Of a DNA stretch of 64,000 nucleotides, positions 8,062 through 50,155 are shown in pieces. The stretch comes from an uncultured Candidatus Saccharibacteria bacterium (GTDB taxonomy: Bacteria > Patescibacteriota > Minisyncoccia > Phycocordibacterales > CAYQYW01). The stretch covers positions 2,203-66,202 of the forward strand of contig CAYQYW010000005.1 of assembly GCA_964421995.1 (NCBI GenBank), read 5' to 3'. The first letter of the stretch is position 1. Every line of letters starts with the position of its first letter. Made by a program: the position numbers and the translations under genes. The notes beneath the pieces were generated by a model. That model had not been told where the DNA came from. It searched no databases and was given only the letters and a program-made list of their open reading frames with translations.

Positions 8062-10518
8062 ATGGCAAAGAAAGACGATAAAGAAGTTCCTGTAGAAAGG
8101 AGTAATATTATTCCACAGAGTATTACGGAAGAGATGAAGACCTCATATCTAGACTATGCTATGACTGTGATCGTCTCAAGAGCGCTTCCTGATGTTCGAG
8201 ATGGGCTAAAACCAGTACACAGAAGAATCCTCTATACCATGCAACAGATGGGATTAAACAGTTCCGCTAAGTTTAGAAAATCAGCTGCGGTAGTTGGAAC
8301 TGTACTAGCTCAATATCATCCACATGGGGACACAGCAGTTTATGAATCAATGGTAAAAATGGCACAGAATTTTTCATTTCGATACCCACTTGTGAAAGGA
8401 CAGGGAAATTTTGGATCAATAGACGGTGACTCAGCTGCGGCGATGCGATATACCGAAGCAAAGATGTCGAAACTTTCTTCTGAGCTTCTTCAAGATTTAG
8501 AAAAGGATACGGTAAATTGGAGTCCAAATTATGACAATACAAGAAAAGAACCACAGGTATTTCCTGCAAAAATTCCTAACGTTCTATTAAATGGAACACT
8601 TGGGATTGCGGTGGGAATGGCAACCAACATTCCACCGAATAATATTTCAGAACTTTGTGGAGCAACTATTCATCTTCTGGAGAATGAGGACGCTACCATG
8701 GAAGATCTATTTGAATATATAAAAGGACCTGACTTTCCAACAGGAGGTATTATTTTTAGTGAAAAGGATATTCACCAGGCCTACTCACATGGGAGAGGAG
8801 GTATTGTCACTCGAGGAGAAGCTGAAATTGTTGAAGACAAGAAGGGGAACTTTACTATTGTGATTACTTCAATTCCATATCGAGTGAATCGGGCAGATAT
8901 GATCATTAAGATCGCAAATCTTGTTCGCGACAAAAAGTTAGAGGGAATTAAAGACCTTCGAGACGAATCAACGGTAGACACGCGAATTGTTATTGAATTA
9001 AAGGGCACCGCACATCCCCAGAACGTATTAAATTATATCTACAAGCACACACAGCTAGAGGATACTTTCCATGTAAACATGGTGGCATTAGTTGACGGTG
9101 TACCACAGACACTCTCCGTGAAGCGGATTCTTGAAGAGTTTATTAAACATCGAAAGACCGTCATTAAACGGCGTACGGAGTTTGACCTCAGGAAAGCAGA
9201 AGACAGAGAGCACATCCTTCTTGGTCTCAAAATTGCACTTGATAAGATTGACCTTATCATCAAAGCTATCCGAGCTTCAAAAGATGCACCTGAAGCGCAC
9301 GCAGTCTTGATGAAGAAGTTTACATTCTCAGATCGACAAGCGACCGCAATCCTCGAAATGAAACTGCAGAAACTTGCTGGACTTGAGCGAAAGAAAATCG
9401 AAGACGAATTAAAAGAAATTCAAAAACTGATTGAATCATTGAAGGCCATTTTGAAGAGCGCTAAAAAAGTAGTTGGTGTCATTGTGAAAGAGTTGCAGGC
9501 AGTTATTACTACCTATGGAGACGAACGAAAGACAAAGGTAATGAAGCGAGGGGTGAAGATGGTTGCTCCGGAGGACCTAATACCCGATGAAGAAAGTATT
9601 CTTGTTCTAACTGAGGGAGGCTATATAAAAAGAACAAATCCAGATGAATACAAGAAGCAGAAGCGTGGGGGTGTTGGTGTTATTGATTTAAATACAAAAG
9701 AAGAGGATGTCGTAACGATGTTTCTGCGAACCAGTTCACACAGTGATCTACTGTTCTTCACGAATAAAGGAAAGGTGTATCAGATCAAAATGTACGACGT
9801 GCCTGAAGCACGCCGTGCAACAAAGGGTAAGTCTATTATGAATTTCCTTTCTTTGTCCTCTGACGAATCGGTAACGTCGGTGCTTGCAATGACGAAGGAG
9901 ATAAAAAAAGAAGATCTTGCTCTCATGATGTTTACCAAACATGGTGTTGCCAAGAAAACAACAGCAGACGCATTCCACGATGTTCGAAGAAGTGGATTAA
10001 TTGCAATCAAATTAAAAGATGGTGATCAGCTCATCAGAGCGCTGTTTGTAGAAAAGGGAGATACAACCATGGTTGCAACAAAGAAGGGACAGTCAATTAG
10101 ATTTAAGGAGGCAGATGTTCGGGAAATGGGACGAGCCGCTTCAGGAGTTACCGCGATTAAACTAAGTGCAGGAGATGAAATTATTGGAGCAGGAGTTTTG
10201 AAGAAGGCACGAAAGAATGAGGAAATTCTTGTTCTTTCAAGTGCTGGATACGGAAAGAAGACAAAATTGAGTGAATACAAAATACAGAATAGAGGAGGTT
10301 CAGGAATTAAGACAATTAATGTAACAGCAAAAACGGGAGATCTTATTGCGATGAGAATTGTGGTAGGAAACGAAGGAGAGTTAGTTGTCGTTTCAAAGAA
10401 AGGACAAGTGATTCGAACTGATCTTTCAGAGATTCCTTCACTTGGTAGATCTACACAAGGGGTAAGGATTATGAAAATGAAAGGAGGGGATAGTATTGCC
10501 TCAACTACACATCTCTAA
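8062..10518 (+). CDS. gyrA: DNA gyrase subunit A
   Basis: 818 aa. [12 protein letters not shown], active-site [16 protein letters not shown]-like beta-pinwheel repeats in the C-terminal domain. Confidence 0.95.
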
Positions 10519-10677
10519 CAGTTAGTCTGAAGAAAAATTTAAATTACCATTTCTTAGAATAGTACCGAAGACAAACAGACTATATACGAATGAAGTTGTT
10601 AATGAAAGAGATAAGCCTAAAACCACTTGGTTGCGTTTGCTGTGGGTTTTTGTCTATGCCAATACACTGGTATACTA

Positions 10678-11985
10678 ATGACATCTATGAATAATATAAA
10701 TCTTTTTCAGATGGTTATACTCGGCGTCTTCGTTTTTCTTGCAGCGGCGGGTGTTTTTGTTTTTGCTACGTTTAGTAATTTTGGAGATAAATCTTTTAAT
10801 AAAGTTATTATTTGGGGCACTATCCAAAATAATACAATGAATTCATATATCAGTGAGCTCAAGCGAGAGAATTCTGGATTAAAGGATGTTGAATATGTAG
10901 AGAAAGATAAGCGGATGTACGTAGAAGAGATCGTAGAAGCACTAGCTGCAGGAACTGGACCTGATCTTTTTATGCTTCCACATGAGTCTCTACTCAGACA
11001 GCAAGATAAGATTGTTCTTATACCCTATGATGCCTATTCAGAGAGAGAGTTCAAAGATACGTTCATAGAAGAAGGAGAGTTGTTCCTCAGTGATGAGGGG
11101 ATCTATGCACTACCATTTCTTGTAGACCCACTTATTATGTATTGGAATAGAGATTTATTTGCGAAAGAAGGACTTTCTAGTCCTCCAAGGTTCTGGGATG
11201 AATTATTTACACTTAGCGAAACGCTTACAAAAAGAGATCAGGCAGGAAATATAGTGCAGAGCACTGTTGCATTTGGAGAATATAGGAACGTTACTAATGC
11301 AAAGGAAATACTGACTGCGCTACTAATGCAGTCGGGAACGCCAATCACCAGCCGCGATGGGGACAAAGTACTCTCACGATTAACTGAGAAATTTGATTTT
11401 GTCACGCCGCCAACGGTTGCAGCGCTTCGCTTCTATACTGAATTTTCTAACCCTGTTAAGTCGGTATATTCCTGGAATAGAGGATTACAGAGCTCTCGAC
11501 AAGAATTTCTTGCGGGAGACCTAGCGATTTACTTCGGATTTGCAAGTGAACTTCAAGATATACGAGAATTAAATCCAAATCTTAACTTTGATATTGCAGA
11601 ATTTCCACAGTCGAGAGATGCATTAAAAAAATTAACCTACGGAAAAATGACCGGTCTTGCTATTTCAAAGCAGTCTCTTAACAAGCAAGGTGCTCTTCAG
11701 ACTGCGATAGCCCTTACGGGAGCATCCGGACTTTCTCTATTTACGGAGTCCACTAATCTTCCTCCGGTTAGAAGAGATTTACTACGTTCTATTCCAAGTG
11801 ACTCATATAATGGTCTTACCTACGTATCAGCGGTATTTTCAAATGCATGGCTTGATCCAAACGTAAAAGAAACCGATCTTCTCTTCAAGGAGATGGTGGA
11901 GTCAGTGACCTCTGGAAAGGAGAACCTAAGCTCTGCAGTTGGAATTGCGGATAAAGAGATGGAAAATCTATTGCGTAGTAGGTAG
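10678..11985 (+). CDS. Extracellular solute-binding protein (ABC transporter substrate-binding protein, family 1-like), membrane anchored
   Basis: N-terminal TM/signal anchor, then GPDLFMLPHE, IPYDAYSE, PFLVDPLIMYWNRDLF motifs typical of sugar-type SBPs. Start moved to MTSMNN (10678) because the upstream part of the ORF overlaps a hairpin and T-run that follow gyrA. Confidence 0.5.
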   Translation: MTSMNNINLFQMVILGVFVFLAAAGVFVFATFSNFGDKSFNKVIIWGTIQNNTMNSYISELKRENSGLKDVEYVEKDKRMYVEEIVEALAAGTGPDLFMLPHESLLRQQDKIVLIPYDAYSEREFKDTFIEEGELFLSDEGIYALPFLVDPLIMYWNRDLFAKEGLSSPPRFWDELFTLSETLTKRDQAGNIVQSTVAFGEYRNVTNAKEILTALLMQSGTPITSRDGDKVLSRLTEKFDFVTPPTVAALRFYTEFSNPVKSVYSWNRGLQSSRQEFLAGDLAIYFGFASELQDIRELNPNLNFDIAEFPQSRDALKKLTYGKMTGLAISKQSLNKQGALQTAIALTGASGLSLFTESTNLPPVRRDLLRSIPSDSYNGLTYVSAVFSNAWLDPNVKETDLLFKEMVESVTSGKENLSSAVGIADKEMENLLRSR

Positions 11986-11995
11986 AATACTATAT

Positions 11996-12331
11996 ATGAG
12001 AATATTACTTTTTAACGCATTATTATTACTTCCCATGATTGCACTCGCGACACATGGAGGTGGAGCTTTTGAGAATCCACTAGGATATAACACCATTGAA
12101 CAATTTCTTACTGCAGTACTTGGTGCAGTGGTAGTGATAGCCTTTCCGTTTATTGTGTTGTTTCTTGTCTATGCTGGATTTCTATTTGTAAGTGCACAGG
12201 GAAATGAGGAAAAGCTTAGTACCGCCAAAAAAGTATTCATGTGGACGATTGTTGGTGGGTTGCTTGTTCTTGGAGCACAAGTACTTTCATATGCGATACA
12301 GGGTACCATACAAGAAATAAGCTATTTCTAA
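11996..12331 (+). CDS. Small secreted two-helix membrane protein, TrbC/VirB2-like (T4SS-pilin-like) paralog 1
   Basis: Signal peptide (MRILLFNALLLLPMIALATHG), then hydrophobic helix, charged loop (SAQGNEEKLSTAKK), second helix. Shares this architecture with the next four genes. Confidence 0.45.
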   Translation: MRILLFNALLLLPMIALATHGGGAFENPLGYNTIEQFLTAVLGAVVVIAFPFIVLFLVYAGFLFVSAQGNEEKLSTAKKVFMWTIVGGLLVLGAQVLSYAIQGTIQEISYF

Positions 12332-12332
12332 T

Positions 12333-12590
12333 ATGAGAATAAGAACATTAGAAGACCTTATCTTTATTCTTACTGATCTAGTAAGTGCTCTAGTACCTGT
12401 GTTGTTTGCTCTTGCATTCCTCGCCTTCTTCTGGGGGTTAGCCACCTTTATCCTAAACGCAGGAAACGAGGAAGGAAGAACGAAAGGAAAAACAACACTT
12501 GTTTGGGGTTCAATTTCTTTGTTTGTAATCTTTAGTATTTGGGGAATATTAACGTTATTAAAGAATACATTCTTCTTGTCGTATGTATAA
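12333..12590 (+). CDS. TrbC/VirB2-like pilin-like small membrane protein, paralog 2
   Basis: Conserved block LAFLAFFWGLATFILNAGNEEGRTKGKTTLVWGSISLFVIFSIWG shared with paralogs 3-5. Confidence 0.5.
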   Translation: MRIRTLEDLIFILTDLVSALVPVLFALAFLAFFWGLATFILNAGNEEGRTKGKTTLVWGSISLFVIFSIWGILTLLKNTFFLSYV

Positions 12591-12861
12591 TTTATATGGA
12601 GTCATTAATCAAGTATTTTATCTAATTAAGAATGCAACATATATCGTTGCTAGCCTTGCACTTCTTTATTTCTTTTGGGGACTTGCAGAATTAATACTAA
12701 AGTCATCTGACGATGAGAAAAGAAAAGAAAGTATACAGAAACTAATATGGGGACTGGTAGCACTGTTCGTGCTACTCAGTATTGCAGGGATTATAAATTT
12801 ACTTCAATTTTCTTTTGGATTAGATGTACATTCTTCATGGCACTTGCTGGAGAGATTGTGA
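12583..12861 (+). CDS. TrbC/VirB2-like pilin-like small membrane protein, paralog 3
   Basis: LALLYFFWGLAELILKSSDDEKRKESIQKLIWGLVALFVLLSIAG. Same two-helix and charged-loop architecture. Confidence 0.5.
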   Translation: MYNLYGVINQVFYLIKNATYIVASLALLYFFWGLAELILKSSDDEKRKESIQKLIWGLVALFVLLSIAGIINLLQFSFGLDVHSSWHLLERL

Positions 12862-12944
12862 TATACTATCATTATCCACAAAGTGTTATTTGCATATAGC
12901 TTCTAGCTCTTTTATTATTAGTACATACATTTAATAATTTTATA

Positions 12945-13289
12945 ATGAACACAATGAAAAAACTAAGTTTTGTCGGCATCCTATCGTTAACCCCATTTCT
13001 TGCATTTGCTCAAACCGCAGGAGATGTATTAACTACGATCGGTGAGTTAATTGGGACTGCTACACCGATTGTCGTTGCACTTGCACTTCTTTATTTCTTT
13101 TGGGGACTTGCGACATTTATTCTTTCGGCCGGAGATGAAGATAATAGAAAAAAAGGAAGAGAAGTTATGATATGGGGCATTATTGCGCTATTCATTATTG
13201 TTTCAGTGTGGGGGCTTATCGGACTTGTACAGCAAACACTTGGTCTTGATACTGATTCAACAATTACTGTTCCCTCAGTAGAACTATAG
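12945..13289 (+). CDS. TrbC/VirB2-like pilin-like small membrane protein with cleavable signal peptide, paralog 4
   Basis: Signal peptide ending LAFA-QT. Then LALLYFFWGLATFILSAGDEDNRKKGREVMIWGIIALFIIVSVWG. Confidence 0.5.
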   Translation: MNTMKKLSFVGILSLTPFLAFAQTAGDVLTTIGELIGTATPIVVALALLYFFWGLATFILSAGDEDNRKKGREVMIWGIIALFIIVSVWGLIGLVQQTLGLDTDSTITVPSVEL

Positions 13290-38790: not shown

Positions 38791-39568
38791 TATGAAGAGA
38801 GGGCTTCGATCTAGAGCACTCGTGCAAAAAAAACGTAAGATTCTATTACAGAAATTTACGGCTCTTTCTTTTATTATTGTTTTTATTTTGAGCTCGTACT
38901 CCGTTTTGTCTCAACTTAAGAGTATCACCATTTCAACAATTGAGGTGCAGGGGAATAACGTAGTATCAGTTCAGGAGCTCACCACAATTGCAGAGAATGA
39001 GTTAGCGGGAAATTATTGGTATTTATTTTCTAAATCAAACATAGCACTGTATTCAGAAAAGAACATCACTGCTTCTGTGTATGATTTGTACAAGAGGATA
39101 AAAAAGATTGATGTGGGAAGGAGAAACCTACAGACTATCTATATGAGAGTTGAGGAGCGGGAGCCATACGCACTATGGTGTACGGATGTTTGTTACTTCT
39201 TAGATGATCGAGGGTACATTTTTGCAGAAGCTCCTGAGTTTACCAGCATGGTGTACTTTACGTATGAAATTCCGCTATCGTCTGACCCCATTGGAACACA
39301 ATTATTTACAGAAAAAGAATTTAGTGAAATAGAGTTGTTATTAAAATCACTTAGAGATTTAGGATTAGTTCCGATAAAGATTTCATTAATTGACGAAATT
39401 GATTTTGAGGTTCAGTTGAAAGATGAAAGCGCCATTATGTTTAGTAGGAATCAAGATTTTGCTGAGGTGTTTGATAATCTTGAATCGGTATACAATGAAA
39501 TTGATGGACTACTAGAATATATTGATTTTAGGTTTGGTAGCAAAGTATATTACCGATATGTGGAATAA
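38780..39568 (+). CDS. ftsQ: Cell division protein FtsQ/DivIB-like (TM plus POTRA)
   Basis: Basic N-terminus, one TM helix, POTRA-like IEVQGNNVVSVQEL region. Start may be the downstream MKRGL. Confidence 0.55.
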   Translation: MVDSMKRGLRSRALVQKKRKILLQKFTALSFIIVFILSSYSVLSQLKSITISTIEVQGNNVVSVQELTTIAENELAGNYWYLFSKSNIALYSEKNITASVYDLYKRIKKIDVGRRNLQTIYMRVEEREPYALWCTDVCYFLDDRGYIFAEAPEFTSMVYFTYEIPLSSDPIGTQLFTEKEFSEIELLLKSLRDLGLVPIKISLIDEIDFEVQLKDESAIMFSRNQDFAEVFDNLESVYNEIDGLLEYIDFRFGSKVYYRYVE

Positions 39569-39610
39569 TTTAAAAAAGCCGTTTTTTGTGATGGCGCCGA
39601 TGGCAGATGT
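39522..39610. repeat. Source copy of an 89-bp segment (ftsQ 3' end / dus 5' end) duplicated in inverted orientation at 42767-42855
   Basis: Appears to be a perfect reverse-complement match to 42767-42855. Confidence 0.8.
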
Positions 39611-40615: not shown

Positions 40616-41440
40616 ATGATACATAATCACATACCAATCAAAGACACCAGGAGCTATAGCTTTGCAATTAATAAGCTACGATCGTTTTTCTTGGAAAAAG
40701 GATTTTTTGAGGTGCACACGCAGGATAGGCTGAGTATATTAGCGGCGTGCGAAGACCCTGATACCGTGGCAACCTACGAATATGGTGGTCAAGTATGGCC
40801 GCTTCCACAAACGGGTCAAATGTGGCTTGAGTATGAGCTACTTTCTAATCCAGATCTTAATGGGGTGTTCTGTGTTAGCACAAGCTACCGGAATGAACCG
40901 AATCCAATTCCTGGAAGACACGAAACAATTTTCCCTATGTTTGAATTTGAGTCAAAGGGAACGCTCGATGATCTACGGCAGTTAGAAATTGATCTTTGTA
41001 CATATCTGGGGTTTGGAGACTCCTTTGTACATAAAACATATGATGAGCTCTCTAAAAAATATGGCACCGATGACTTAACTTCAGAAAATGAATTTGAAAT
41101 GGAGAAAGAGTATGGAAAGGTAGTATTTTTAGAACACTTTCCTGAAACATCCTCACCCTTCTGGAATATGAAAAGAAATGGAAAACTTGCAAACAAGATA
41201 GATGTCATCATGCATGGTATGGAAACGATTGGATCTGCGGAACGAAGTTGTGATCGAGATGAAATGAGAGAGCGATTCAACACCATTAGTAATGGAGGGT
41301 ACGCACAGTTACTCTTCGACAAGTTTGGTAAAGAACGAGTAGAGAACGAACTAGATGATTTTCTTACCTTAGAGCTCTTTCCTCGATATGGAGGTGGAAT
41401 TGGAATGACACGGATGGTTCGCGCGCTTCAAAGTTTGTAA
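40616..41440 (+). CDS. Class II aaRS catalytic-core paralog without anticodon-binding domain (AsnRS/AspRS-like; candidate archaeal-type asparagine synthetase AsnA, or an amino-acid ligase)
   Basis: 274 aa. Motif-1-like KLRSFFLEKGFFEVHT, motif-2-like STSYRNEPNPIPGRHETIFPMFEFE, motif-3-like GGGIGMTRMV. Confidence 0.5.
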   Translation: MIHNHIPIKDTRSYSFAINKLRSFFLEKGFFEVHTQDRLSILAACEDPDTVATYEYGGQVWPLPQTGQMWLEYELLSNPDLNGVFCVSTSYRNEPNPIPGRHETIFPMFEFESKGTLDDLRQLEIDLCTYLGFGDSFVHKTYDELSKKYGTDDLTSENEFEMEKEYGKVVFLEHFPETSSPFWNMKRNGKLANKIDVIMHGMETIGSAERSCDRDEMRERFNTISNGGYAQLLFDKFGKERVENELDDFLTLELFPRYGGGIGMTRMVRALQSL

Positions 41441-42567: not shown

Positions 42568-42585
42568 TGTTTCAATACGTCTATT

Positions 42586-42656
42586 ACCGGATCGTCTAAT
42601 GGTAGGACGCTTGGTTTTGGTCCAAGAAATCGGGGTTCGAGCCCCTGTCCGGTAGC
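42586..42656 (+). tRNA. tRNA-Gln (anticodon TTG)
   Basis: TACCGGATCGTCTAATGGTAGGACGCTTGGTTTTGGTCCAAGAAATCGGGGTTCGAGCCCCTGTCCGGTAG. U1-A72 pair as in bacterial tRNA-Gln. Loop TTTTGGT. Confidence 0.75.
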
Positions 42657-42766
42657 CGTTTGAATATTTGAACCGATTTGCAAGCTCCGCATACGGAGTA
42701 TTGGCTTTCTTCCCTCTACGACACAGTTCGAGGTAATAATTTTCAGCAATCTGCGCTTTCCAAGCA

Positions 42767-42855
42767 CATCTGCCATCGGCGCCATCACAAAAAACGGCTT
42801 TTTTAAATTATTCCACATATCGGTAATATACTTTGCTACCAAACCTAAAATCAAC
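42767..42855. repeat. Inverted perfect 89-bp copy of the ftsQ/dus junction (39522-39610), lying in noncoding DNA downstream of tRNA-Gln
   Basis: Reverse complement reads TTGATTTTAGGTTTGGTAGCAAAGTATATTACCGATATGTGGAATAATTTAAAAAAGCCGTTTTTTGTGATGGCGCCGATGGCAGATGT. Confidence 0.8.
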
Positions 42856-43050
42856 ACATTCCATTGGTCCAAATGTTCAGCCAACAAATCATTACTATGC
42901 AGAAAGCGTCGAATAATTTGTTTAGTGAATATCCTCACGCAGATTTGTGGTGATTCTTTTATCAAATTACACTGTCGTGTTTAAGATTTGTTTCTGATAT
43001 ACACTTAACTATCTCAAATGCTTCAAAAGTTGAGACACTAAGTCTCCAAA

Positions 43051-43083
43051 AGAAGTTCGAGGTGCGTCCCGTTGCGGGTAGCA
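43051..43083 (+). repeat. Degenerate copy of the tRNA-Gln 3' end (att-like scar A)
   Basis: AAGAAGTTCGAGGTGCGTCCCGTTGCGGGTAGC versus tRNA 3' end GGTTCGAGCCCCTGTCCGGTAGC. A shorter GTTCGAGGT fragment also occurs at 42727-42735. Confidence 0.45.
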
Positions 43084-43184
43084 TCAGTCATTAATGTACT
43101 ATTACTGTGTCATGTATAAATAGGAGTGACATGTTCTATTAGTTGTAGAGTTGTACGCATACTGATAATGCAAGATCTCATGAT

Positions 43185-43685
43185 ATGCTGTATTTTATGA
43201 AGTCCAATTATGCATTTATTGATGCACAAAATCTTTATCTCGGTTCGAAGCAAGCTAACATTAATCTCAGTTATCGGAAGTTTCGTGTTTACTTAAAGGA
43301 AAAATATAATGTAGAGCGTGCATATATTTTTATTGGATACTTGCCAGAAAATCGAGAGCTGTATGATTATCTGCAAGACAGAGATTATCTCTTAAAATTT
43401 AAGCCAGTACTTCCAGCTGGAAACGGTCAAAAACAAAAAGGTGATGTTGATGCTGACATGGCATTTAATACAATGCGCTATTATCAGGAGTATGGTAAAG
43501 CAATTTTGGTAACGAGTGACGGAGACTTTGATACGTTGGCGAGTTTTCTACGAACAAAAGACAAATTGGGTGGTGTGATCAGTCCTAATAGAGATAAGTG
43601 TTCTTCTCTTCTGCAAAAAGCAGCAAAAGGTAAAATGTTTTATCTTGAGGATGTTGGAAAGAAAATAATGAAAAAGCACCGCTAG
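43185..43685 (+). CDS. NYN-domain (LabA-like) protein, second copy
   Basis: AFIDAQNLY near the N-terminus. KGDVDADMAF and LVTSDGDFDTLASFL are NYN acidic-residue motifs. Confidence 0.6.
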   Translation: MLYFMKSNYAFIDAQNLYLGSKQANINLSYRKFRVYLKEKYNVERAYIFIGYLPENRELYDYLQDRDYLLKFKPVLPAGNGQKQKGDVDADMAFNTMRYYQEYGKAILVTSDGDFDTLASFLRTKDKLGGVISPNRDKCSSLLQKAAKGKMFYLEDVGKKIMKKHR

Positions 43686-43803
43686 AGGACGGAACCTATA
43701 GCAGTGCTTTTTCCTGATGATACATATATCATTACACAGATGAATAATAGAAGCAAGTGTGGTCCTACTATAAGGAAAGCATTACATGATATAATATATC
43801 CTG

Positions 43804-43834
43804 AAAAGTTCGAGGTACGCCCCTGTCCGGTAGC
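43804..43834 (+). repeat. Degenerate copy of the tRNA-Gln 3' end (att-like scar B)
   Basis: AAAAGTTCGAGGTACGCCCCTGTCCGGTAGC, that is the tRNA-Gln 3' end with a 5-nt insertion. Ends 6 nt before the next start codon. Confidence 0.5.
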
Positions 43835-43840
43835 AATTAT

Positions 43841-44977
43841 ATGATCAATATGATAAAACAGAAATTTCTTGATTATCATCGTTCGCATGGATTTAAAATT
43901 TATGACTCATTTCCACTGGTGATTGATGACCCTACTGTTCTTTTTACTAATGCGACCATAACACCTTTTAAGTCTATGTTTACAGGAGAAGTAAAAATGG
44001 AAAACTATGCTCTCTCACAAAAATGTTTACGTTTGGGTGGTACGGCAGGAAATCTTGAGACGTCTCGATCTGATATAAATTATACATCTTTGTTTGATAT
44101 GCTTGGCAGTGGTTTTTTTAATGTGAGCATGAATGAAGCAGTACATTATTTTGTAGAGCTACTCTCAGAAATAGGTTTTTCACAGGATCGTCTCATATTT
44201 TCAACCCTATCGGGCGTCGGTTTTGATGAAGCACTTAAATGTGCAGGCGTTGCTTCTCATCAAATATTTTTATTTGATCCCTCTGATAAGACTTTTCTTC
44301 ATGAATGGAGTTTTGGAGAAGGAGATTTACACGGACACGGTATAGTAGTTCGAGTTATTCCTGAGGAAGAGGTAACTCTTTCTAAAGACAACATAGTCGA
44401 TAAGTTTTCAGAGTATATTCAAATTGGAAGAATAGTTCATATTAATGGTATATCACATGAAAATAAAACTGTTGAAGAATTTCCATATATGGCTTTTGAT
44501 GTGGGACTTGGTTTAAGTAGAGTTGAATGTGCCCTTTTAGGAAATTCTGAATCATCAATGCGCCCATGGAGAGAAATTTCATATAATCTTCAAGGTGTGA
44601 TTCCTGGATTATCTAAAGGTGATGCTCATTATATTGCAAATTTATATTATGTAGCTAAAAGTCTTATAAGCGAGAAACTAGTACCTGGGAAAAAGAAACA
44701 TTCCTATGTTCTGCGGAAAATTATACGATTATTTATTGAAGAACTTTGGGTTAAGTCAAAAAAACTTGTAGATATTGTTGAACTTATTAGTCAACCACAG
44801 AGGTTATCAGATAATGAACTATTTTTTGAAATTATTTCACAAGAAGAAAAGGCACTTCGTAAGATACTTTCTAAAGCATTGAAAAAAAGACAGGAATACT
44901 CTACTATGAGCCCTGAAGAGTTATGGTCTACTTTTGGCATTAAAGGTAATCTCCTTAATCTTTTGAAACAAGATTAA
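43841..44977 (+). CDS. Mini-AlaRS paralog: alanyl-tRNA synthetase catalytic plus tRNA-recognition domains only (no editing or C-Ala domains)
   Basis: Collinear with E. coli AlaRS residues about 1-440. [36 protein letters not shown] matches [51 protein letters not shown] matches [28 protein letters not shown] matches [24 protein letters not shown] matches RGYVLRRIIR. The conserved FFEMLGNFSFGDYF block is degenerate ([11 protein letters not shown]). Confidence 0.6.
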   Translation: [378 protein letters not shown]

Positions 44978-46443
44978 ATATCGAGCGTAACCAATGGATT
45001 TTCATTTTGATATAGAAGAGCATTTGATTGATAAATTCCACTCATTATTTTTACTGGCATGGTCTGTGAATCTATATTAGATTTCAGATCTTCTTTTTTA
45101 ATATTTCCAAGCATAAAATTAAGATATTCTAAGATTACCCGATCTTTTGCTTTTTCAATGGTTAATTGGCCGTCAATGTTTTTTTCGATATCTTTTCCTG
45201 TAATCTTTTTAAAAGAACTTCCAGACCCAAACATTTTATTATTTCGGAAAATATAGATATCAAAGTGATTGTTGCCACCGATATCAAATTCGTCTGTGTT
45301 ATCAATATCATGCATATCTTCTGACTGATAATTGTGAACATGAATAGACTGGAAAGGTCCTTGTTGAATTATGAACTGTTGATGTTTTACTCGACCATTT
45401 CCTTTATATAAATCTTTGTTTGGAATTGCCCAAGCACGCTTCGAAAAGCTATTGTGTAATAAGTTAATAGACACGTTACAGATATTTTCACCATTTTTTA
45501 AGAATCGTAAAATATTAAATGAGTCAATTTCTCCATATTCTTTAGTTTCCTCTACATATTCTTCTCGAGTTAGATTAGATTCTTGGTATTCTGACTTAAA
45601 ATAGTTACGATAATCTCGTTCAGTTATATTCACCCTAAAGCCACTTGGAAATAACGCAGAAGAAAAAATTTGCATACTATTCGGTTGTTTTTCTTGGACT
45701 ATTCCAGCTTCATATAATTGCCAAACCATATCAAAAATATGATATCCACTGTGCGAGCATTTACCATATCCATCCTGATAGGAGTGTGATTTTTGAAAAA
45801 GTATTTCTTTTGGAAAGACCCACGTTCCATCAGCATGCATTGCTTGAATTGAAGTAACGGGTATGTTAAATTTTTCCTTTGCTTCTATAATTAGTTTTTT
45901 TACTTTTTCAAAACCATAATCGTATCTTCGTTGTATATTTATTGAAAAAATTGTTGATTTTTTATCCTGCACTTTCTTGTATGACTCAAGAAGATCATAA
46001 TAATCCTCCAATACTCCGACAGCTTGAGAGAGTTTTGTATTCTGAAATTTTCTTACAGAAATAGGTTTATCCATAAGAATGTGTAAATTTCGCTTAAGAG
46101 CCCATTCTGCGTATACTTTGTGAGATAAGGGGTCTGTTGAGATAATCACTCCAGTAATATTGAACTTATCTACAAATGCATCAAGTTCACTAATAACATT
46201 CTTCTGAAGACTTAACCCTAGTTCAATGGAATTAGAATCCAAATAATCAGTGTCCAAATAAATCATTTCAAGATCATAATTGTTTTCATGTAAATATTTC
46301 TCTATAACGTCTTTTTGTGAAGTTAGATCTACACCACCAACTAAGGTAATTGGCATAGATTTTGAATATCTTATTAGTGTAGGAATGTATATTCTTCGAG
46401 CATGAAATCCCGCTCCTATGAGCATAATGTTGATTGAAGCCAT
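44974..46443 (-). CDS. Gfo/Idh/MocA-family NAD(P)-dependent oxidoreductase
   Basis: N-terminal Rossmann IMLIGAGFHARRIYIP. MDKPIS resembles the family EKP motif. About 30% GC. Confidence 0.55.
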   Translation of the reverse strand: MASINIMLIGAGFHARRIYIPTLIRYSKSMPITLVGGVDLTSQKDVIEKYLHENNYDLEMIYLDTDYLDSNSIELGLSLQKNVISELDAFVDKFNITGVIISTDPLSHKVYAEWALKRNLHILMDKPISVRKFQNTKLSQAVGVLEDYYDLLESYKKVQDKKSTIFSINIQRRYDYGFEKVKKLIIEAKEKFNIPVTSIQAMHADGTWVFPKEILFQKSHSYQDGYGKCSHSGYHIFDMVWQLYEAGIVQEKQPNSMQIFSSALFPSGFRVNITERDYRNYFKSEYQESNLTREEYVEETKEYGEIDSFNILRFLKNGENICNVSINLLHNSFSKRAWAIPNKDLYKGNGRVKHQQFIIQQGPFQSIHVHNYQSEDMHDIDNTDEFDIGGNNHFDIYIFRNNKMFGSGSSFKKITGKDIEKNIDGQLTIEKAKDRVILEYLNFMLGNIKKEDLKSNIDSQTMPVKIMSGIYQSNALLYQNENPLVTLDI

Positions 46444-46513
46444 TTGATTTACTTAAATTTGATAATAAAATCTATCATAGCATTTTTTTACATTTATTGT
46501 ATAATTGTGATTA

Positions 46514-47322
46514 TGTTAGATACTACTTGGAAAGTCAAAAAAATAGAGTCTAAAAATGATTTTGATCCAGGTATACTACTTCCTCAACTTGCGAACAATG
46601 ACATTCCAGCAATACAAATAGCCAATTTTTATTCACCGGATGTGCTAGATACAATTGTGAAGAATATATTTTCACAGGGGATTCTATGGTATCAAAATTT
46701 TGAATACAAACAGGGTAGAATTGGTGTTTGTGCGACTGAGTATTATTCGAAACTAAATGGAAAAGCAGCTTATTTTGCGCTTGAACCAGAACATTCTCGT
46801 ATTAGAGAAAACATTTTTTCTACTACTCTAGATCCAGTTAACAAACTGATCGAGTTATTTTCTATTAGTTACAAAACAAACATTGCTCGTGAGCCTACTA
46901 TGGGGAATTTAAAATATTTTTCTGGTATTATTCGTGCAATGCAACAAAAAAGTACTGCACATTTTGACTATGCCACTCATCAATTACCAGGGTGGTGGGT
47001 TTCAAACATGGAAGCACAGTTCGGTATTGTTATTTATTTACAAATGCCTGAATTAGGAGGAGAGTTAACTATATATAATCGACCGTGGATACCTGAGGAT
47101 GATAAATATAATCAAGACGTAGAAGAAAAGGGTCCAAAAGGTTTTGATGAAGGACTTTTAAAAAATGTTCCTTCAACAACAATTACTCCTCATGTAGGTG
47201 ATGTAATTATTTTTAGCACAAGAAACTTTCATCAAGTTGATGGTATTAATTCTGATACTATTCGTTTGACTTGTAATTCATTTGTAAGTCTTAAAGACAA
47301 CAAACTTTATTTGTGGAGTTAA
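46514..47322 (+). CDS. 2OG-Fe(II) oxygenase-superfamily-like protein (PhyH-like)
   Basis: Putative facial triad AHFDYA (HxD) ... HVGDVIIFSTRNFHQV, with RLT 11 residues after the distal His (RxS/T 2OG-binding-like). Start moved to MLDTTW (46514). Confidence 0.4.
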
Positions 47323-47334
47323 TAGAATATTTTC

Positions 47335-48171
47335 TTACCACAGGTCTGACAACGTGTAGTCATGGAATTGATTCATAACTGTTTTTGTGATTAATCCAAC
47401 TTTACCATCTCCAACAGGATTATTGTCTATTTTAGTGACGGGAACCACCTCTTTAGCACTTACCGACAAGAACACTTCTGATGCATTCTTAAGATCATCT
47501 ACTGAAAAGTCTTCAACTACAATTGGAATATCAAGTGTTAGGGTTTCAAGTAATACTCCTCGTGTTATTCCATATAAAATGTTATTTTGCGGAGTAAGAA
47601 GCCTGTTGTTTATAACAGCAAAAATATTACTACAAGCACCCTCTCGCACTATATTATCTGAATGGTAAATTAGTTCAGCAATACTTAATGATTCAAAAAG
47701 ATGTATGTTCCGTACTAATTCAATATAGTTATTAGTTTTTGCGTTTGCTTTGTACCGTTCAAATTCAATCAGGTGTACACTTACTCCATCTTCATACATT
47801 TCTTTTGCAAAAACAAAAAACGAATCAACAATAATCATTATGGTCGGTGTTTTTGGTGGAACTAAAGTGTTTGAGGGTCCGCCTGAAATAACAATTCGGA
47901 GAACTTTTTCATCAGCAGTTTTATTTTTAGCAAGCGTATCGAAAACCCACTTAATGATTTGTTTTTTCTCCCATGGAATTGAAAGACTTATACTAGCTGC
48001 CGATTGATAGAGTCGATCAATATGTTTTTTTAGTATAAACGGTTTATGGTGTGGATATGTTCTTATCAATTCAAAAACTGCATATCCTCGAGAATACCCA
48101 AGATCTCGTGGAGAGATAAGAAGTTCTTCCTCAGAAACAAATGATCCATTTAAAAAGTGAATATTAGTCAT
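47335..48171 (-). CDS. Class IV PLP-dependent aminotransferase (D-amino-acid / branched-chain aminotransferase or ADC-lyase family)
   Basis: GYAVFE, TNNYIEL and EGACSNIFAV blocks typical of fold-type IV enzymes. PLP-Lys region present. Confidence 0.65.
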   Translation of the reverse strand: MTNIHFLNGSFVSEEELLISPRDLGYSRGYAVFELIRTYPHHKPFILKKHIDRLYQSAASISLSIPWEKKQIIKWVFDTLAKNKTADEKVLRIVISGGPSNTLVPPKTPTIMIIVDSFFVFAKEMYEDGVSVHLIEFERYKANAKTNNYIELVRNIHLFESLSIAELIYHSDNIVREGACSNIFAVINNRLLTPQNNILYGITRGVLLETLTLDIPIVVEDFSVDDLKNASEVFLSVSAKEVVPVTKIDNNPVGDGKVGLITKTVMNQFHDYTLSDLW

Positions 48172-48283: not shown

Positions 48284-50155
48284 ATGGAATACAGTGAGGC
48301 TAGAAAGCGATATCTTAAATTTTTTCAGAAACGAAAACATGCGATTGTTCCATCTGCATCACTTGTACCAATAAATGACCCAACCACTTTATTTACTGGG
48401 TCTGGAATGCAGCCAATGGTACCGTTCCTCTTAGGTGAAGCACATCCTAAAGGATCTAGGATTGTTGATTTACAAAAATGCTTTCGTGCAGAGGATATTG
48501 AAGAAATAGGAGATAATCGTCACACAACATTTTTTGAAATGATGGGGAACTGGTCTTTTGGTGATTATTTTAGAAAAGAACAACTTTCTTGGTATTTTGA
48601 ATTTCTCACAGACGAGATGGATATAGATCCAAAGAAACTTTATGTAACGGTATTTGCAGGAGATAAAGATTTTGATTTAAAAAGAGATGACGAAGCTATT
48701 AGTATTTGGAAGAAACTTTTTGCTGGAAAAGGTATAGAGGCAAAAGATATATACGTAGGAAGCGAAGAGCATGGTGCTAATTTAGATATAGGCGATGCTC
48801 GTATTTTTCAATATACCGCAAAGAAAAACTGGTGGTCTCGAGCCGGGATACCAAAAAATATGCCAGTCGGAGAAATGGGAGGTCCAAATTCTGAAGTATT
48901 TTTTGATTTTGGTACTCCACACGACACCGCTTACGGAAAATATTGTCATCCAAATTGTGACTGCGGAAGGTTTGTAGAGCTTGGAAACTCTGTTTTCATA
49001 ACTCACCTAAAAACAGATGACGGAAATTTTGTATTATTACCAAAAAAGAACGTAGATTTTGGTGGGGGAATAGAACGTCTTGTTGCTATTGCGAATAAGA
49101 ATCCTGATATATTTTCAATCAATATCTTCCAGGGGGTGATTGCAAAGCTTGAAGAACTTTCTGGAAAATCTTACGATCAAGATAAACATGCATTCCGGAT
49201 TATCGTTGATCATATTCGGGGAGCTCTCTTTATGATTGTTGATGGAGTTGTTCCTTCAAACACTGAACAAGGCTATTTCTTACGAAGGCTTCTACGACGA
49301 ATGATAGTACATGCTGATCGACTTACTATTCCTAAATATGGTCTTATAGAACTTCCTGAAATTATTGCTGTTGAGTATAAAGATGTCTACCCAGAATTAG
49401 TTGAGAAGATTTCATATGTACAGAAAATTTTTAGAGAAGAGGAAGAACGTTTCCGTGTCACTCTCACAAAAGGTCTTAAAGAATTTAAAAAGCTTTCTCA
49501 TAACACAAGTTTTATCTCTGGACACGATGCATTTATTCTTTTTTCTACATACGGATTTCCGTTAGAAATTACTATAGAATTTGCTGAAGAATGTGGAATT
49601 ACTGTTGACGAAGAGGCATTCCATGAAGAAATGAAAAAGCATCAAGAGGAATCACGAAAAGGGGTAGGGCAGAAATTTAAAGGAGGTCTTGCAGACAACA
49701 ATGAAAAGATAACTATGCTCCATACCACAACACACCTTATGCTAGCAGGACTTAGAAAATACTTGGGCAAAGATGTACACCAGGCAGGATCGAACATAAC
49801 TGTTGAACGTACTCGTTTTGATTTCACTCATTCTGAAAAAGTTAGTAGAGAAATTCTAAATAAGGTAGAAGAATATGTTAATAGGGCAATTCAAAATAAA
49901 TGTAATGTCATCACTGAACAAATACCAAAAGAAAAAGCAAAGGAACAGGGCGTCGAAGGAAGTTTTTGGGAGAAATATCCTGATACGGTGAATGTGTACA
50001 GCGTTGTTTGTTCAGACGGAACTGTCTATTCAAAAGAATTATGTGGCGGACCACATGTTAAAAACACAAAAGAAATCAAGGGCACCTTTAAAATCAAAAA
50101 AGAAGAGGCTAGTTCTGCAGGGGTAAGAAGAATAAAAGCTATTTTAGAAGAGTGA
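48284..50155 (+). CDS. alaS: Alanyl-tRNA synthetase (catalytic, tRNA-recognition and editing domains; no C-Ala domain)
   Basis: 623 aa. TTLFTGSGMQPMVPF, RHTTFFEMMGNWSFGDYF, GGGIERL. Editing-site HTTTHLM (HxxxH) and CGGPHV (CxxxH). Confidence 0.9.
   Translation: MEYSEARKRYLKFFQKRKHAIVPSASLVPINDPTTLFTGSGMQPMVPFLLGEAHPKGSRIVDLQKCFRAEDIEEIGDNRHTTFFEMMGNWSFGDYFRKEQLSWYFEFLTDEMDIDPKKLYVTVFAGDKDFDLKRDDEAISIWKKLFAGKGIEAKDIYVGSEEHGANLDIGDARIFQYTAKKNWWSRAGIPKNMPVGEMGGPNSEVFFDFGTPHDTAYGKYCHPNCDCGRFVELGNSVFITHLKTDDGNFVLLPKKNVDFGGGIERLVAIANKNPDIFSINIFQGVIAKLEELSGKSYDQDKHAFRIIVDHIRGALFMIVDGVVPSNTEQGYFLRRLLRRMIVHADRLTIPKYGLIELPEIIAVEYKDVYPELVEKISYVQKIFREEEERFRVTLTKGLKEFKKLSHNTSFISGHDAFILFSTYGFPLEITIEFAEECGITVDEEAFHEEMKKHQEESRKGVGQKFKGGLADNNEKITMLHTTTHLMLAGLRKYLGKDVHQAGSNITVERTRFDFTHSEKVSREILNKVEEYVNRAIQNKCNVITEQIPKEKAKEQGVEGSFWEKYPDTVNVYSVVCSDGTVYSKELCGGPHVKNTKEIKGTFKIKKEEASSAGVRRIKAILEE

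Follow-up and report, generated by a model that had tools for sequence, protein, structure and literature searches.

A truncated alanyl-tRNA synthetase paralog in a recurring gene cassette of Patescibacteria and its possible role as an alanyl transferase

Introduction

What purpose is served by a protein resembling the catalytic core of alanyl-tRNA synthetase (AlaRS) when a genuine alaS is encoded nearby? The question is raised by a locus in a 64,000-nucleotide stretch of DNA (the window) from an uncultured Candidatus Saccharibacteria bacterium. A preliminary description had read positions 43841 to 48171 as one system of four genes, encoding an AlaRS-core paralog (AlaRSp), an oxidoreductase, an oxygenase, and an aminotransferase, and had suggested that AlaRSp charges tRNA or ligates an amino acid. 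The open reading frames that it had placed there were confirmed, and all AlaRSp motifs that it had quoted are present.

Results

AlaRSp (43841..44977, + strand; 378 aa) comprises the aminoacylation and tRNA-recognition domains, without an editing or C-Ala domain. Residues 5 to 360 matched positions 2 to 386 of the 552-position Pfam profile tRNA-synt_2c (PF01411; E=1.7e-28), and the C terminus lies just past the TFGI motif, at about E. coli residue 405-412 and ahead of the editing domain. This match and the AlphaFold2 model (pLDDT 87.7) agree with the domain boundaries assigned earlier, and the top Foldseek matches of the model were the AlaRS catalytic fragments 3HXU, 1RIQ, and 9JC7 (TM 0.72 to 0.75). 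With 93.5 bits, AlaRSp scored far under the alaS equivalog cut-off of 457. A misassembled duplicate of alaS was rejected as an origin, given 22% identity to the alaS of the window and an identical junction between AlaRSp and the oxidoreductase gene on a separate JGI contig (L001).

Phylogenetically, AlaRSp falls in a deep clade of proteins of about 370 aa that stands apart from canonical AlaRS and is almost confined to Patescibacteria, the main clade having 100% neighbor-joining bootstrap. Among representative proteins, taken at one per 50%-identity cluster, full-length members of the family reached 302 to 532 bits and canonical AlaRS at most 169 bits, leaving a clear gap. Fifty columns were invariant among 24 family members, and the active-site Arg, Asp, and Gly were conserved throughout. 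These findings support AlaRSp as an AlaRS catalytic-core paralog that is neither a dead nor a recent duplicate, and its main clade appears to be distinct and under selection.

On E. coli AlaRS numbering, AlaRSp keeps the motif 2 Arg (R69), the adenine-stacking Phe (F90), D235, G237, and the motif 3 Arg (R242), all invariant or nearly so, together with the small-side-chain pocket residue V214 and, in the tRNA domain, PGNKKHAYVLRKxIR and TFGI. Replaced are K73/H74 (by T/G), R85 (by N), E183 (by V/I), E209 (by Q), and N212 (by R). In the light of the structural literature on AlaRS, K73, R85, E183, and E209 presumably serve the ATP/Mg site. Since several residues of that site are replaced, a standard tRNA-charging or adenylate-forming enzyme seems less likely than an aminoacyl-tRNA-dependent transferase; of the earlier suggestion, the AlaRS core stood, and charging or ligation lost ground. 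Positions that read G3:U70 were not strictly retained (N303 is Lys in the AlaRSp of the window, and D400 is Ser/Ala).

Profile matches upheld the names given to the three neighbors. The long Gfo/Idh/MocA-type NAD(P) oxidoreductase (44974..46443, − strand; 489 aa) scored 26.6 bits with PF01408 (cut-off, 24). Its profile yielded only weak N-terminal matches in the PDB, and the C-terminal approximately 300 aa had no sequence match there; the gene is present in all cassette loci, with conserved GxGxHA and ILMDKP motifs and alignment columns that average 76% identity across the orthologues from cassettes. The WelO5-family Fe(II)/2-oxoglutarate (2OG) oxygenase (46513..47322, + strand; PF22814, E=1.7e-20) is encoded in a frame that opens at TTG 46444, with homologues beginning at Met 46513. 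Its C-terminal half aligns with WelO5/WelO15 structures, KSTxHFDYA and RNFHQ are invariant in 12 orthologues, and the HxD...H triad points to hydroxylation, not halogenation, as the predicted activity. The divergent class IV (fold type IV) pyridoxal phosphate (PLP) aminotransferase (47335..48171, − strand; PF01063, E=3.6e-36) fell under every equivalog cut-off for branched-chain aminotransferase, D-amino-acid transaminase, and ADC lyase, and its catalytic Lys lies within an invariant AKT.NY.

All three enzymes were co-conserved with AlaRSp in every related locus examined, which bore out the idea of a single system; the set of four proved incomplete, because a gene for an S51 peptidase belongs to the canonical cassette as its fifth member. 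The usual order is aminotransferase, hydroxylase (on the opposite strand), oxidoreductase, S51 peptidase, and AlaRSp, with the oxidoreductase and peptidase genes overlapping. It was found in 11/11 distinct main-clade genomes of a species-representative scan, and further metagenome-assembled genomes and metagenome loci carry the set. The host genomes are labelled Saccharimonadia, Nomurabacteria, and Levybacteria, and the cassette flanks are unrelated between genomes. Across cassettes the HxD...H triad, PLP lysine, Rossmann and DKP motifs, and S51 Ser/His/Glu are invariant; judged by these predicted active-site motifs, the enzymes look competent. The genes in the window are a rearranged copy of this conserved accessory cassette that recurs across Patescibacteria, with the three-enzyme block inverted and the S51 peptidase absent, and this copy may function differently from the standard one.

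The four genes of the window alternate in strand (+ − + −), an arrangement absent from the preliminary description; they therefore do not form one operon. Cassette GC was 32.5% (genes, 31.4 to 34.1%) against a window mean of 38.3%, and only 1.3% of same-size windows were as low; the earlier contrast of 28-33% with about 40% had the right direction and slightly overstated the size. The genuine alaS (48284..50155, + strand) encodes a short-type enzyme of 623 aa with an editing core and a tRNA_SAD domain (NF002436, 641.5 bits; cut-off, 529), as had been proposed. The 112-bp spacer between the aminotransferase gene and alaS holds divergent promoter-like hexamers, and a promoter scan was not above chance. 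A position directly upstream of alaS, taken earlier as a feature of the system, did not hold among relatives, as most of their cassettes lie elsewhere; pairing with an AlaRS gene or another aminoacyl-tRNA synthetase (aaRS) gene does recur. We regard alaS as a neighbor and possible supplier of Ala-tRNA, outside the conserved cassette.

Upstream lies a tRNA-Gln(UUG) gene (42585..42657, + strand; ARAGORN and Rfam), whose 3' end is repeated as an exact, att-like 14-nt copy at 43821..43834 (+ strand), located 7 nt ahead of the start codon of AlaRSp. This repeat indicates that 42658-43834, which holds an NYN gene, is a later insertion and that the cassette originally abutted the tRNA gene. Cassettes abut tRNA genes in other genomes too; no tRNA-Ala gene accompanying the cassette was found.

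Some cassettes have a mini-AlaRS of about 430 aa beside them (L016, L018, and L036) or directly after AlaRSp (L009, L023, and L024), and these proteins keep the alanine/ATP-binding residues R69, F90, W170, E183, E209, N212, V214, D235, G237, and R242. Two loci (L033 and L042) carry the aminotransferase, hydroxylase, oxidoreductase, and S51 peptidase genes with a HisZ/HisRS-fold class II core in place of AlaRSp; its GIGTEL segment, putatively motif 3, lacks the Arg. The paralogs of a sister clade lie with genes for a PLP decarboxylase, methyltransferases, and an S66 peptidase resembling MccF, and with dCTP-deaminase-like genes; this microcin-C-like cassette adjoins a dedicated mini-AlaRS.

Discussion

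Most likely, AlaRSp places alanine on the small-molecule product of its neighbors rather than serving protein synthesis. In the ascamycin pathway of Streptomyces sp. 80H647, the truncated AlaRS-like enzyme AcmF, which lacks activation residues, moves alanine from Ala-tRNA to an amine, the cluster AlaRS AcmD makes the Ala-tRNA, and the hydrolase AcmE reverses the AcmF reaction (review PMC12945691; Zheng et al. 2024, ACS Catal 14:3533). By analogy, we put at about 40% the probability that AlaRSp is an AcmF-like alanyl transferase and that the cassette joins an alanyl group to a small amine and, in its normal form, also splits this conjugate. In a free small molecule, which is probably a basic amino acid, the hydroxylase would place a hydroxyl group at an unactivated carbon; the dehydrogenase would convert the resulting alcohol to a ketone and the aminotransferase the ketone to a new amine, an order proposed purely on chemical logic. 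AlaRSp, still holding the alanyl group and its acceptor-stem-binding domain minus the ATP/Mg-site residues, would then move L-alanine to this amine, most likely from Ala-tRNA(Ala) provided by the adjacent alaS in the window and by the dedicated mini-AlaRS in some relatives. In the standard cassette, the S51 Ser-His-Glu peptidase would later detach this alanine, as a means of immunity, activation, or recycling. We infer this chemistry, the alanyl donor, and the substrate, as we would any antibiotic or prodrug role.

Against such a transferase stand the imperfectly kept G3:U70-reading positions, the lack of an accompanying tRNA-Ala gene, and the differences from the AcmF active site; AlaRSp may also still form an adenylate, since it has kept R69, F90, and the motif 3 Arg. 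With D235, G237, and V214 also kept and a complete class II core in the model, AlaRSp could be an ATP-dependent ligase that adenylates alanine, or else a small modified amino acid from the neighboring enzymes, for transfer to a small-molecule amine or hydroxyl, a tRNA, or a modified tRNA nucleoside, comparable to AsnA, EpmA, GluQRS, and MshC-type paralogs. Both acidic residues of the ATP/Mg site are gone, however, as are K73/H74 of the motif 2 loop and R85, and an Arg has been brought in at N212; the strongly conserved tRNA-recognition domain would be superfluous for a tRNA-independent ligase, and the dedicated canonical mini-AlaRS of relatives suits the supply of a donor better. We consider a ligase rather doubtful. 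The remodelled ATP site would also fit a noncatalytic sensor or regulatory subunit that, by the logic of HisZ or GCN2, controls the neighboring enzymes or serves as their scaffold and has as its ligand alanine, uncharged tRNA, or a compound resembling an aminoacyl adenylate. Among aaRS paralogs, HisZ is the textbook case of a regulator, and the HisZ-like core without the motif 3 Arg in L033 and L042 raises the possibility that the aaRS-like cassette partners are regulatory, not catalytic. Such a role is nevertheless unlikely for AlaRSp: its catalytic-site Arg and Asp and whole pocket are strictly conserved, its family is consistently accompanied by an amide-cleaving enzyme (S51 or S66), which points to the formation of an amide bond, and AcmF, the only characterized AlaRS-like paralog, is catalytic.

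Natural mini-AlaRS enzymes exist, as in Tupanvirus and the split enzyme of Nanoarchaeum, gene clusters for aaRS inhibitors often carry a resistant aaRS copy, and the cassette lies repeatedly beside aaRS genes, so that AlaRSp might be an editing-less back-up that charges tRNA-Ala under inhibition, for instance by the product of the cassette itself. We find this quite improbable in view of its low score against the alaS cut-off, its replaced activation residues, and the separate canonical-looking mini-AlaRS that relatives encode besides AlaRSp in cases that appear to call for a resistant or supplying copy. That four unrelated genes share a low-GC patch by chance, as the alternating strands and the promoter scan might suggest, is hardly credible when the genes stay together in every main-clade locus, in genomes of three lineage labels and with unrelated flanks.

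Comparison with known systems

Canonical AlaRS fragments (E. coli AlaRS441 and A. aeolicus AlaRS453) and natural mini-AlaRS share the fold and domain order of AlaRSp, along with R69, D235, G237, the motif 3 Arg, and the YVLR(R/K) acceptor-stem helix. AlaRSp differs in its approximately 21% identity, in the substitutions listed above, in being about 60 residues shorter, and in coexisting with a genuine alaS. Stand-alone synthetase cores in nontranslational roles, class II except for the class I GluQRS, include HisZ (regulatory), EpmA/PoxA (modifying EF-P), AsnA (making asparagine), and GluQRS; none is derived from AlaRS or linked to the enzyme set of AlaRSp.

In related loci rather than in the window, the sister-clade cassette recalls the aminoacyl-nucleotide pathways of microcin C type (MccB/D/E/F): its S66 peptidase resembles MccF, its Orn/DAP-type PLP decarboxylase the N-terminal domain of MccE, and its methyltransferase-fold proteins MccD. 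Both share the logic of an aminoacyl conjugate and a cleaving peptidase, but the cassette has an AlaRS-like protein instead of an MccB-like ThiF enzyme or precursor peptide. Dipeptide prodrugs of bacilysin type, in which an N-terminal L-alanine caps a modified amino acid and is released by a peptidase, would resemble the proposed product, a similarity of speculative function only; the bacilysin ligase BacD is an ATP-grasp enzyme, unlike AlaRSp.

Closest in kind among described proteins appears to be AcmF, which we compared by description only. Both are truncated to the domains for aminoacylation and tRNA recognition, both carry changes in the activation site, and each belongs to a clade apart from canonical AlaRS, and relatives of the window encode alongside AlaRSp a canonical-type AlaRS, like AcmD, and a hydrolase that could undo alanylation, like AcmE. 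The active sites differ, AlaRSp having Arg at N212 and keeping D235 where AcmF carries the changes N to Q and D to E, and so do the hydrolase (S51 versus alpha/beta), the host (Patescibacteria versus Streptomyces), and the partners, which for AcmF are nucleoside-sulfamate enzymes. The preliminary description had held that no AlaRS-core paralog was described in such a context; AcmF (PMC12945691) is an earlier example of a truncated AlaRS-like enzyme that works in biosynthesis, and what is undescribed is the enzyme context of AlaRSp, with its Fe/2OG hydroxylase, Gfo/Idh/MocA dehydrogenase, and class IV aminotransferase.

An AlaRS-core paralog of separate lineage

The open reading frames named in the preliminary description were found where it had placed them, among them gene 43841-44977 (+), which encodes the 378-aa AlaRS-core protein called AlaRSp here. 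AlaRSp matched the Pfam family tRNA-synt_2c (the class IIc core of AlaRS) with 99.9 bits (gathering threshold, 30.3; E = 1.7e-28) over profile positions 2 to 386 of 552. An AlphaFold2 model of the protein (pLDDT, 87.7), for which 24 homologues served as input, was matched by Foldseek to 3HXU, 1RIQ, and 9JC7, the catalytic fragments of Escherichia coli, A. aeolicus, and human AlaRS, with TM scores of 0.72 to 0.75. No tRNA_SAD match, and thus no editing domain (HxxxH/CxxxH), was found in AlaRSp, whose chain ends with the tRNA-recognition domain. Its scores were below the alaS equivalog cutoffs of TIGR00344 (93.5 versus 457) and NF002436 (39.5 versus 529). The genuine alaS of the window (48284-50155, +), which is of the short type with the editing-domain core present, scored 641.5 bits against a cutoff of 529, and the two proteins are 22% identical.

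Among 5.8 billion proteins, a word-indexed search found approximately 104 clusters of relatives of 360 to 390 aa (32 to 59% identity). The few taxon names on these clusters were Saccharimonadales, Nomurabacteria, Levybacteria, Moranbacteria, and "Patescibacteria group," and NCBI names relatives of AlaRSp "alanine--tRNA ligase-related protein." The family profile, run exhaustively with HMMER against 1.84 billion representatives, retrieved three representatives of the main clade, to which AlaRSp belongs (467 to 532 bits), 10 full-length representatives that on inspection were of the sister clade (302 to 378 bits), and a few intermediates; canonical AlaRSs of 850 to 900 aa appeared only at 169 bits or less. 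Clusters were looked up for 10 of the representatives retrieved, and none carried an informative name, nine being unnamed and one being named "alanyl-tRNA synthetase" (JGI); no AcmF-like name occurred among the nearest HMMER hits, which were metagenome proteins. A family member was present in 14 of 185,579 species representatives. In a neighbor-joining tree, the main clade had 100% bootstrap support and all paralogs were placed on one long branch, nearest to which were short AlaRSs of the Patescibacteria type and the mini-AlaRS genes found beside some of the gene sets described below. We judge the paralog lineage to be old and separate from alaS, and the family to be conserved and almost restricted to Patescibacteria, a poorly understood radiation. 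A recent duplicate or a misassembled copy of alaS was ruled out by the 22% identity, the deep clade, and the presence of the AlaRSp-dehydrogenase junction of the window on an independent JGI contig; a dead duplicate was ruled out by 50 invariant columns among 24 members that are 30 to 59% identical to the window protein.

A probably degraded activation site

Residues were mapped onto E. coli AlaRS (Ec numbering; sequence from the MG1655 record). Kept were R69 of motif 2, F90, V214, D235, G237, and the motif 3 Arg, together with the acceptor-stem helix motif P(G/S)NKKxxYVLRKxIR and a "TFGI" element. Replaced throughout the family were K73/H74 (by T/G), R85 (N), E183 (V/I), E209 (Q), and N212 (R). 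Most members of the sister clade have Glu at D235, and the main clade keeps the Asp and has Arg at N212. D235 is the residue that holds the α-amino group of alanine, and the lost residues are presumably those that handle ATP and Mg. On these presumed roles, the alanyl-holding site and the tRNA domain would have survived while triphosphate handling was degraded.

A conserved cassette, rearranged in the window

Conservation was assessed in 11 separate genomes of the species scan and in additional contigs from MAGs and metagenomes. Most often, the genes run aminotransferase (+), WelO5-like oxygenase (-), dehydrogenase (+), S51 peptidase (+), and AlaRS paralog (+), and these genes recurred in every main-clade locus with sufficient flanking sequence. 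The dehydrogenase and S51 peptidase genes overlap in this standard cassette. The flanks are unrelated between genomes, and the cassette usually lies against a tRNA gene (for Asn, His, Ser, or Tyr). Optional extras include a kinase of the APH type, an FAD monooxygenase, a ligase of the YbdK type, and a gene with weak similarity to YqcI/YcgG. The last of these is an optional sixth gene between the S51 peptidase and the paralog, encoding a highly conserved protein of 216 to 223 aa with a subthreshold YqcI/YcgG match (L017 9296-9958, L019 6569-7231, L021 9317-9988, L039 10167-10817, and L048 2974-3627). At one locus (L012 5617-17371), the unit of tRNA-His and the five-gene cassette is present as two tandem copies whose match statistics are identical, which is either a true duplication or an assembly artifact.

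The window copy of the cassette is atypical and rearranged. Relative to the paralog, its block of aminotransferase, hydroxylase, and dehydrogenase genes is inverted, with the same junction on an independent JGI contig; its strands alternate (a feature on which the preliminary description was silent), and no S51 gene was found within the whole 64-kb window; nor were S66, APH, YqcI-like, or HisZ-like genes found elsewhere in it. The dehydrogenase (44974-46443, -; 489 aa) is of the Gfo/Idh/MocA type (PF01408, 26.6 bits versus 24), with an N-terminal Rossmann domain in which GxGxHA and "DKP," an EKP-type motif, are invariant; its C-terminal 300 aa had no match among PDB sequences, where sequence searches were uninformative. 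The WelO5-family Fe/2OG oxygenase (+; PF22814, 74.2 bits versus 27) has its probable true start at Met 46513. Its motif is HFD in 12 of 12 orthologues, that is, HxD and not HxG/A; the HxD...H triad predicts a hydroxylase, and a halogenase was ruled out by the HxD motif. The class IV aminotransferase (47335-48171, -; PF01063, 125.6 versus 28.5) was below the cutoffs of the NCBIfam equivalogs for BCAT, D-amino-acid transaminase, and ADC lyase (best, 172.8 versus 363). By their motifs, the partner enzymes look catalytically competent: HxD...H in the oxygenase, the PLP lysine in the aminotransferase, the Rossmann domain and "DKP" in the dehydrogenase, and Ser/His/Glu in the S51 peptidase.

The GC content of the cassette was 32.5%, compared with 38.3% for the window (5.8 points lower), and was as low in only 1.3% of windows of the same size. 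The tRNA-Gln gene at 42585-42657 is the sole tRNA gene near the cassette; Rfam gave nothing else, and no dedicated tRNA or T-box leader was found near the paralog. Downstream of the tRNA-Gln gene are two further copies of its 3' end: a diverged one near 43053-43083 and one at 43806-43836, the exact core of which (14/14, the last 14 nt of the tRNA) lies 7 nt upstream of the AlaRSp start codon. These copies bracket only the segment with an NYN-domain gene (43185-43685) and leave the cassette outside. Of the features of a tRNA-adjacent genomic island, the cassette thus shows deviant GC, a neighboring tRNA gene (here and in most relatives), and variable flanks, but not flanking direct repeats. With a tRNA 3'-end copy beside the paralog, the NYN segment looks like a later insertion at the tRNA gene. 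A promoter and terminator scan gave no enrichment over shuffled sequences.

Two further features were noted upstream. The gene at 40616-41440 (+), 3 kb upstream of the cassette, encodes a second stand-alone synthetase-core paralog, a 274-aa class II core of the Asp/Asn/Lys type that is without an anticodon-binding domain and weakly matches AsnRS, archaeal-type asparagine synthetase A, and EpmA. A 106-nt inverted repeat (39505-39610 and 42766-42871; 95% complementary), was also present, in which the 5' end of a dus-like gene is duplicated in reverse. Between its arms lie that dus-like gene, the gene for the class II core, a short dnaX-like gene, and the tRNA-Gln gene, and the repeat may mark an invertible segment or be a rearrangement scar.

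Synthetase partners and cassette variants

A mini-AlaRS of approximately 430 aa without an editing domain adjoins the cassette in three main-clade loci (L016, L018, and L036). In the sister clade, it directly follows the paralog in L009, L023, and L024, and none follows it in L022. Most main-clade loci have no mini-AlaRS beside the cassette; in the window, the housekeeping alaS is adjacent. The sister-clade cassette (L009 3600-10474, L022 3462-9732, and L023 6992-12453) encodes an S66 peptidase, a PLP decarboxylase of the Orn/DAP type, two methyltransferase-fold proteins, and two dCTP-deaminase-like proteins. We take its peptidase, decarboxylase, and methyltransferase to resemble MccF, the N-terminal domain of MccE, and MccD of microcin C, respectively.

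Two loci, L033 and L042, have the same four enzymes (44 to 58% identity to the genes of the window or the reference genes) without the AlaRS paralog. Its slot is taken there by a protein of 376 to 385 aa from a family without a Pfam assignment (L033 4967-6124 and L042 6043-7173; also L111-L114 8001-9140). Comparison with PDB sequences was uninformative for this protein, and the assignment came from the fold search: its model (pLDDT, 78.6) matched HisZ and HisRS cores (Foldseek E of approximately 1e-12). The predicted fold indicates that a second, unrelated class II core occupies the slot of AlaRSp in these loci. Elsewhere, this HisZ-like family accompanies an S66 peptidase, a UbiE-type methyltransferase, and a 377-aa AsnRS/AsnA-like core. 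L033 also has a gene for a leucyl-tRNA synthetase that carries a NUDIX domain insertion at residues 411 to 515 (10239-13088), followed by TyrRS; these genes directly adjoin the S51 gene of the cassette.

The closest homologues of the window dehydrogenase (60 to 68% identity) lie between class I and class II lysyl-tRNA synthetase genes (L028 6418-11949 and L115 7728-12887), and L028 has a WelO5-like gene nearby as well. The class II LysRS-like gene of L028 encodes 824 aa, with an unassigned C-terminal extension of approximately 320 aa. More distant dehydrogenase relatives (37 to 52% identity) belong to another gene set (L025, L026, L047, L049-L052, L054, L056, and others). There, a gene for a TPP-dependent enzyme usually comes directly after that of the dehydrogenase, and genes for an SHMT-like protein, an SDR, or an alanine racemase are often present as well; the set is separate and apparently undescribed.

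Proposed reaction and alternatives

The preliminary description had read the paralog and its neighbors as one system. That reading withstood the objections of duplication, misassembly, and lack of co-conservation, and is corrected here by a fifth gene (the S51 peptidase), by the rearrangement of the window copy, by a published precedent (AcmF, of ascamycin biosynthesis), and by the function of the paralog, which is probably a transferase and not a charging enzyme. By analogy with AcmF, we tentatively propose (probability of approximately 0.4) that the three enzymes make an amine that the paralog then alanylates from Ala-tRNA. The hydroxylase, dehydrogenase, and aminotransferase would convert C-H to C-NH2 on a free small molecule, AlaRSp would alanylate the resulting amine with Ala-tRNA as the donor, and the S51 peptidase, lacking in the window, would reverse the alanylation. 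A basic amino acid is a possible acceptor, of which the link with LysRS genes and the optional YqcI/YcgG-like gene each give a weak hint. A puromycin-type acceptor is also possible by analogy, with a 3'-keto and then a 3'-amino nucleotide being formed before aminoacylation, as with Pur10 and Pur4.

The paralog might instead be an ATP-dependent ligase that still forms the adenylate itself. We consider this unlikely; of the canonical alaS activation-site set, AlaRSp keeps R69, D235, and G237, and K73, H74, R85, E183, E209, and N212 are replaced. Less likely still is a regulatory or sensor subunit in the style of HisZ, a family whose fold is predicted for the protein in the paralog slot of L033 and L042. 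There is little to recommend AlaRSp as a back-up or resistant mini-AlaRS: the mini-AlaRSs beside some cassettes keep R69, F90, W170, E183, E209, N212, V214, D235, G237, and R242. In these proteins and in the window alaS, the motif 2 loop is short and K73/H74 have no counterpart, and some mini-AlaRSs are altered at R85, F89, and E91. A chance neighborhood is already contradicted, and we give it almost no weight.

Possible significance

The ultrasmall Patescibacteria are thought to be nearly devoid of specialized metabolism. A wider reading, which we regard as speculative and rather doubtful, combines a modular, previously unrecognized Patescibacteria route to aminoacyl conjugates with a window product that would be an alanyl-capped Trojan-horse antimetabolite or translation inhibitor. 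Such a route would use neither NRPS nor ATP-grasp enzymes; AlaRS-like, HisZ/HisRS-like, and AsnRS-like class II cores would serve as transferases, moving aminoacyl groups from charged tRNAs to purpose-built amines or nucleotides, and every core would have an S51 or S66 peptidase as its partner. The window product would be an alanyl-capped basic-amino-acid analogue aimed at the host or at competitors. This role would account for the recurrence of the cassette and its dehydrogenase beside AlaRS, LysRS, LeuRS/TyrRS, and ProRS genes. If true, a conserved and horizontally mobile cassette would provide Patescibacteria with a small-molecule tool against hosts or rivals, AlaRS-derived transferases would become a family in which AcmF is no longer a single case, and a new alanyl-transfer enzyme would be available for biocatalysis. 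The interchange of AlaRS-like and HisZ-like partners within one cassette is a clean natural experiment in the repurposing of synthetase cores.

Comparison with AcmF

The literature searched contained no description of this Patescibacteria paralog family or of its enzyme context. The closest precedent, AcmF, is a truncated AlaRS-like enzyme with only the aminoacylation and tRNA-recognition domains, and it is without most activation residues (N219Q and D232E) (PMC12945691). It moves alanine from Ala-tRNA(Ala), made by AcmD, the AlaRS of the cluster, to the sulfamate nitrogen of dealanylascamycin, and the alanine is removed again by the hydrolase AcmE (PMC12945691). AlaRSp shares with AcmF the two-domain truncation and a clade apart from canonical AlaRS. 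Its apparently degraded activation site resembles that of AcmF in part. The logic of the partners may be similar too, with a putative supplier AlaRS beside the paralog in some relatives and a hydrolase that could reverse the alanylation. Unlike AcmF, in which the equivalents of Ec N212 and D235 are changed to Q and E, the AlaRSp main clade has Arg in place of the Asn and keeps the Asp, and the tailoring enzymes and the type of peptidase in the cassette differ from those of the AcmF cluster. Aminoacyl transfer driven by a synthetase paralog in small-molecule metabolism is a known type of system, of which the cassette described here would be a new variant.
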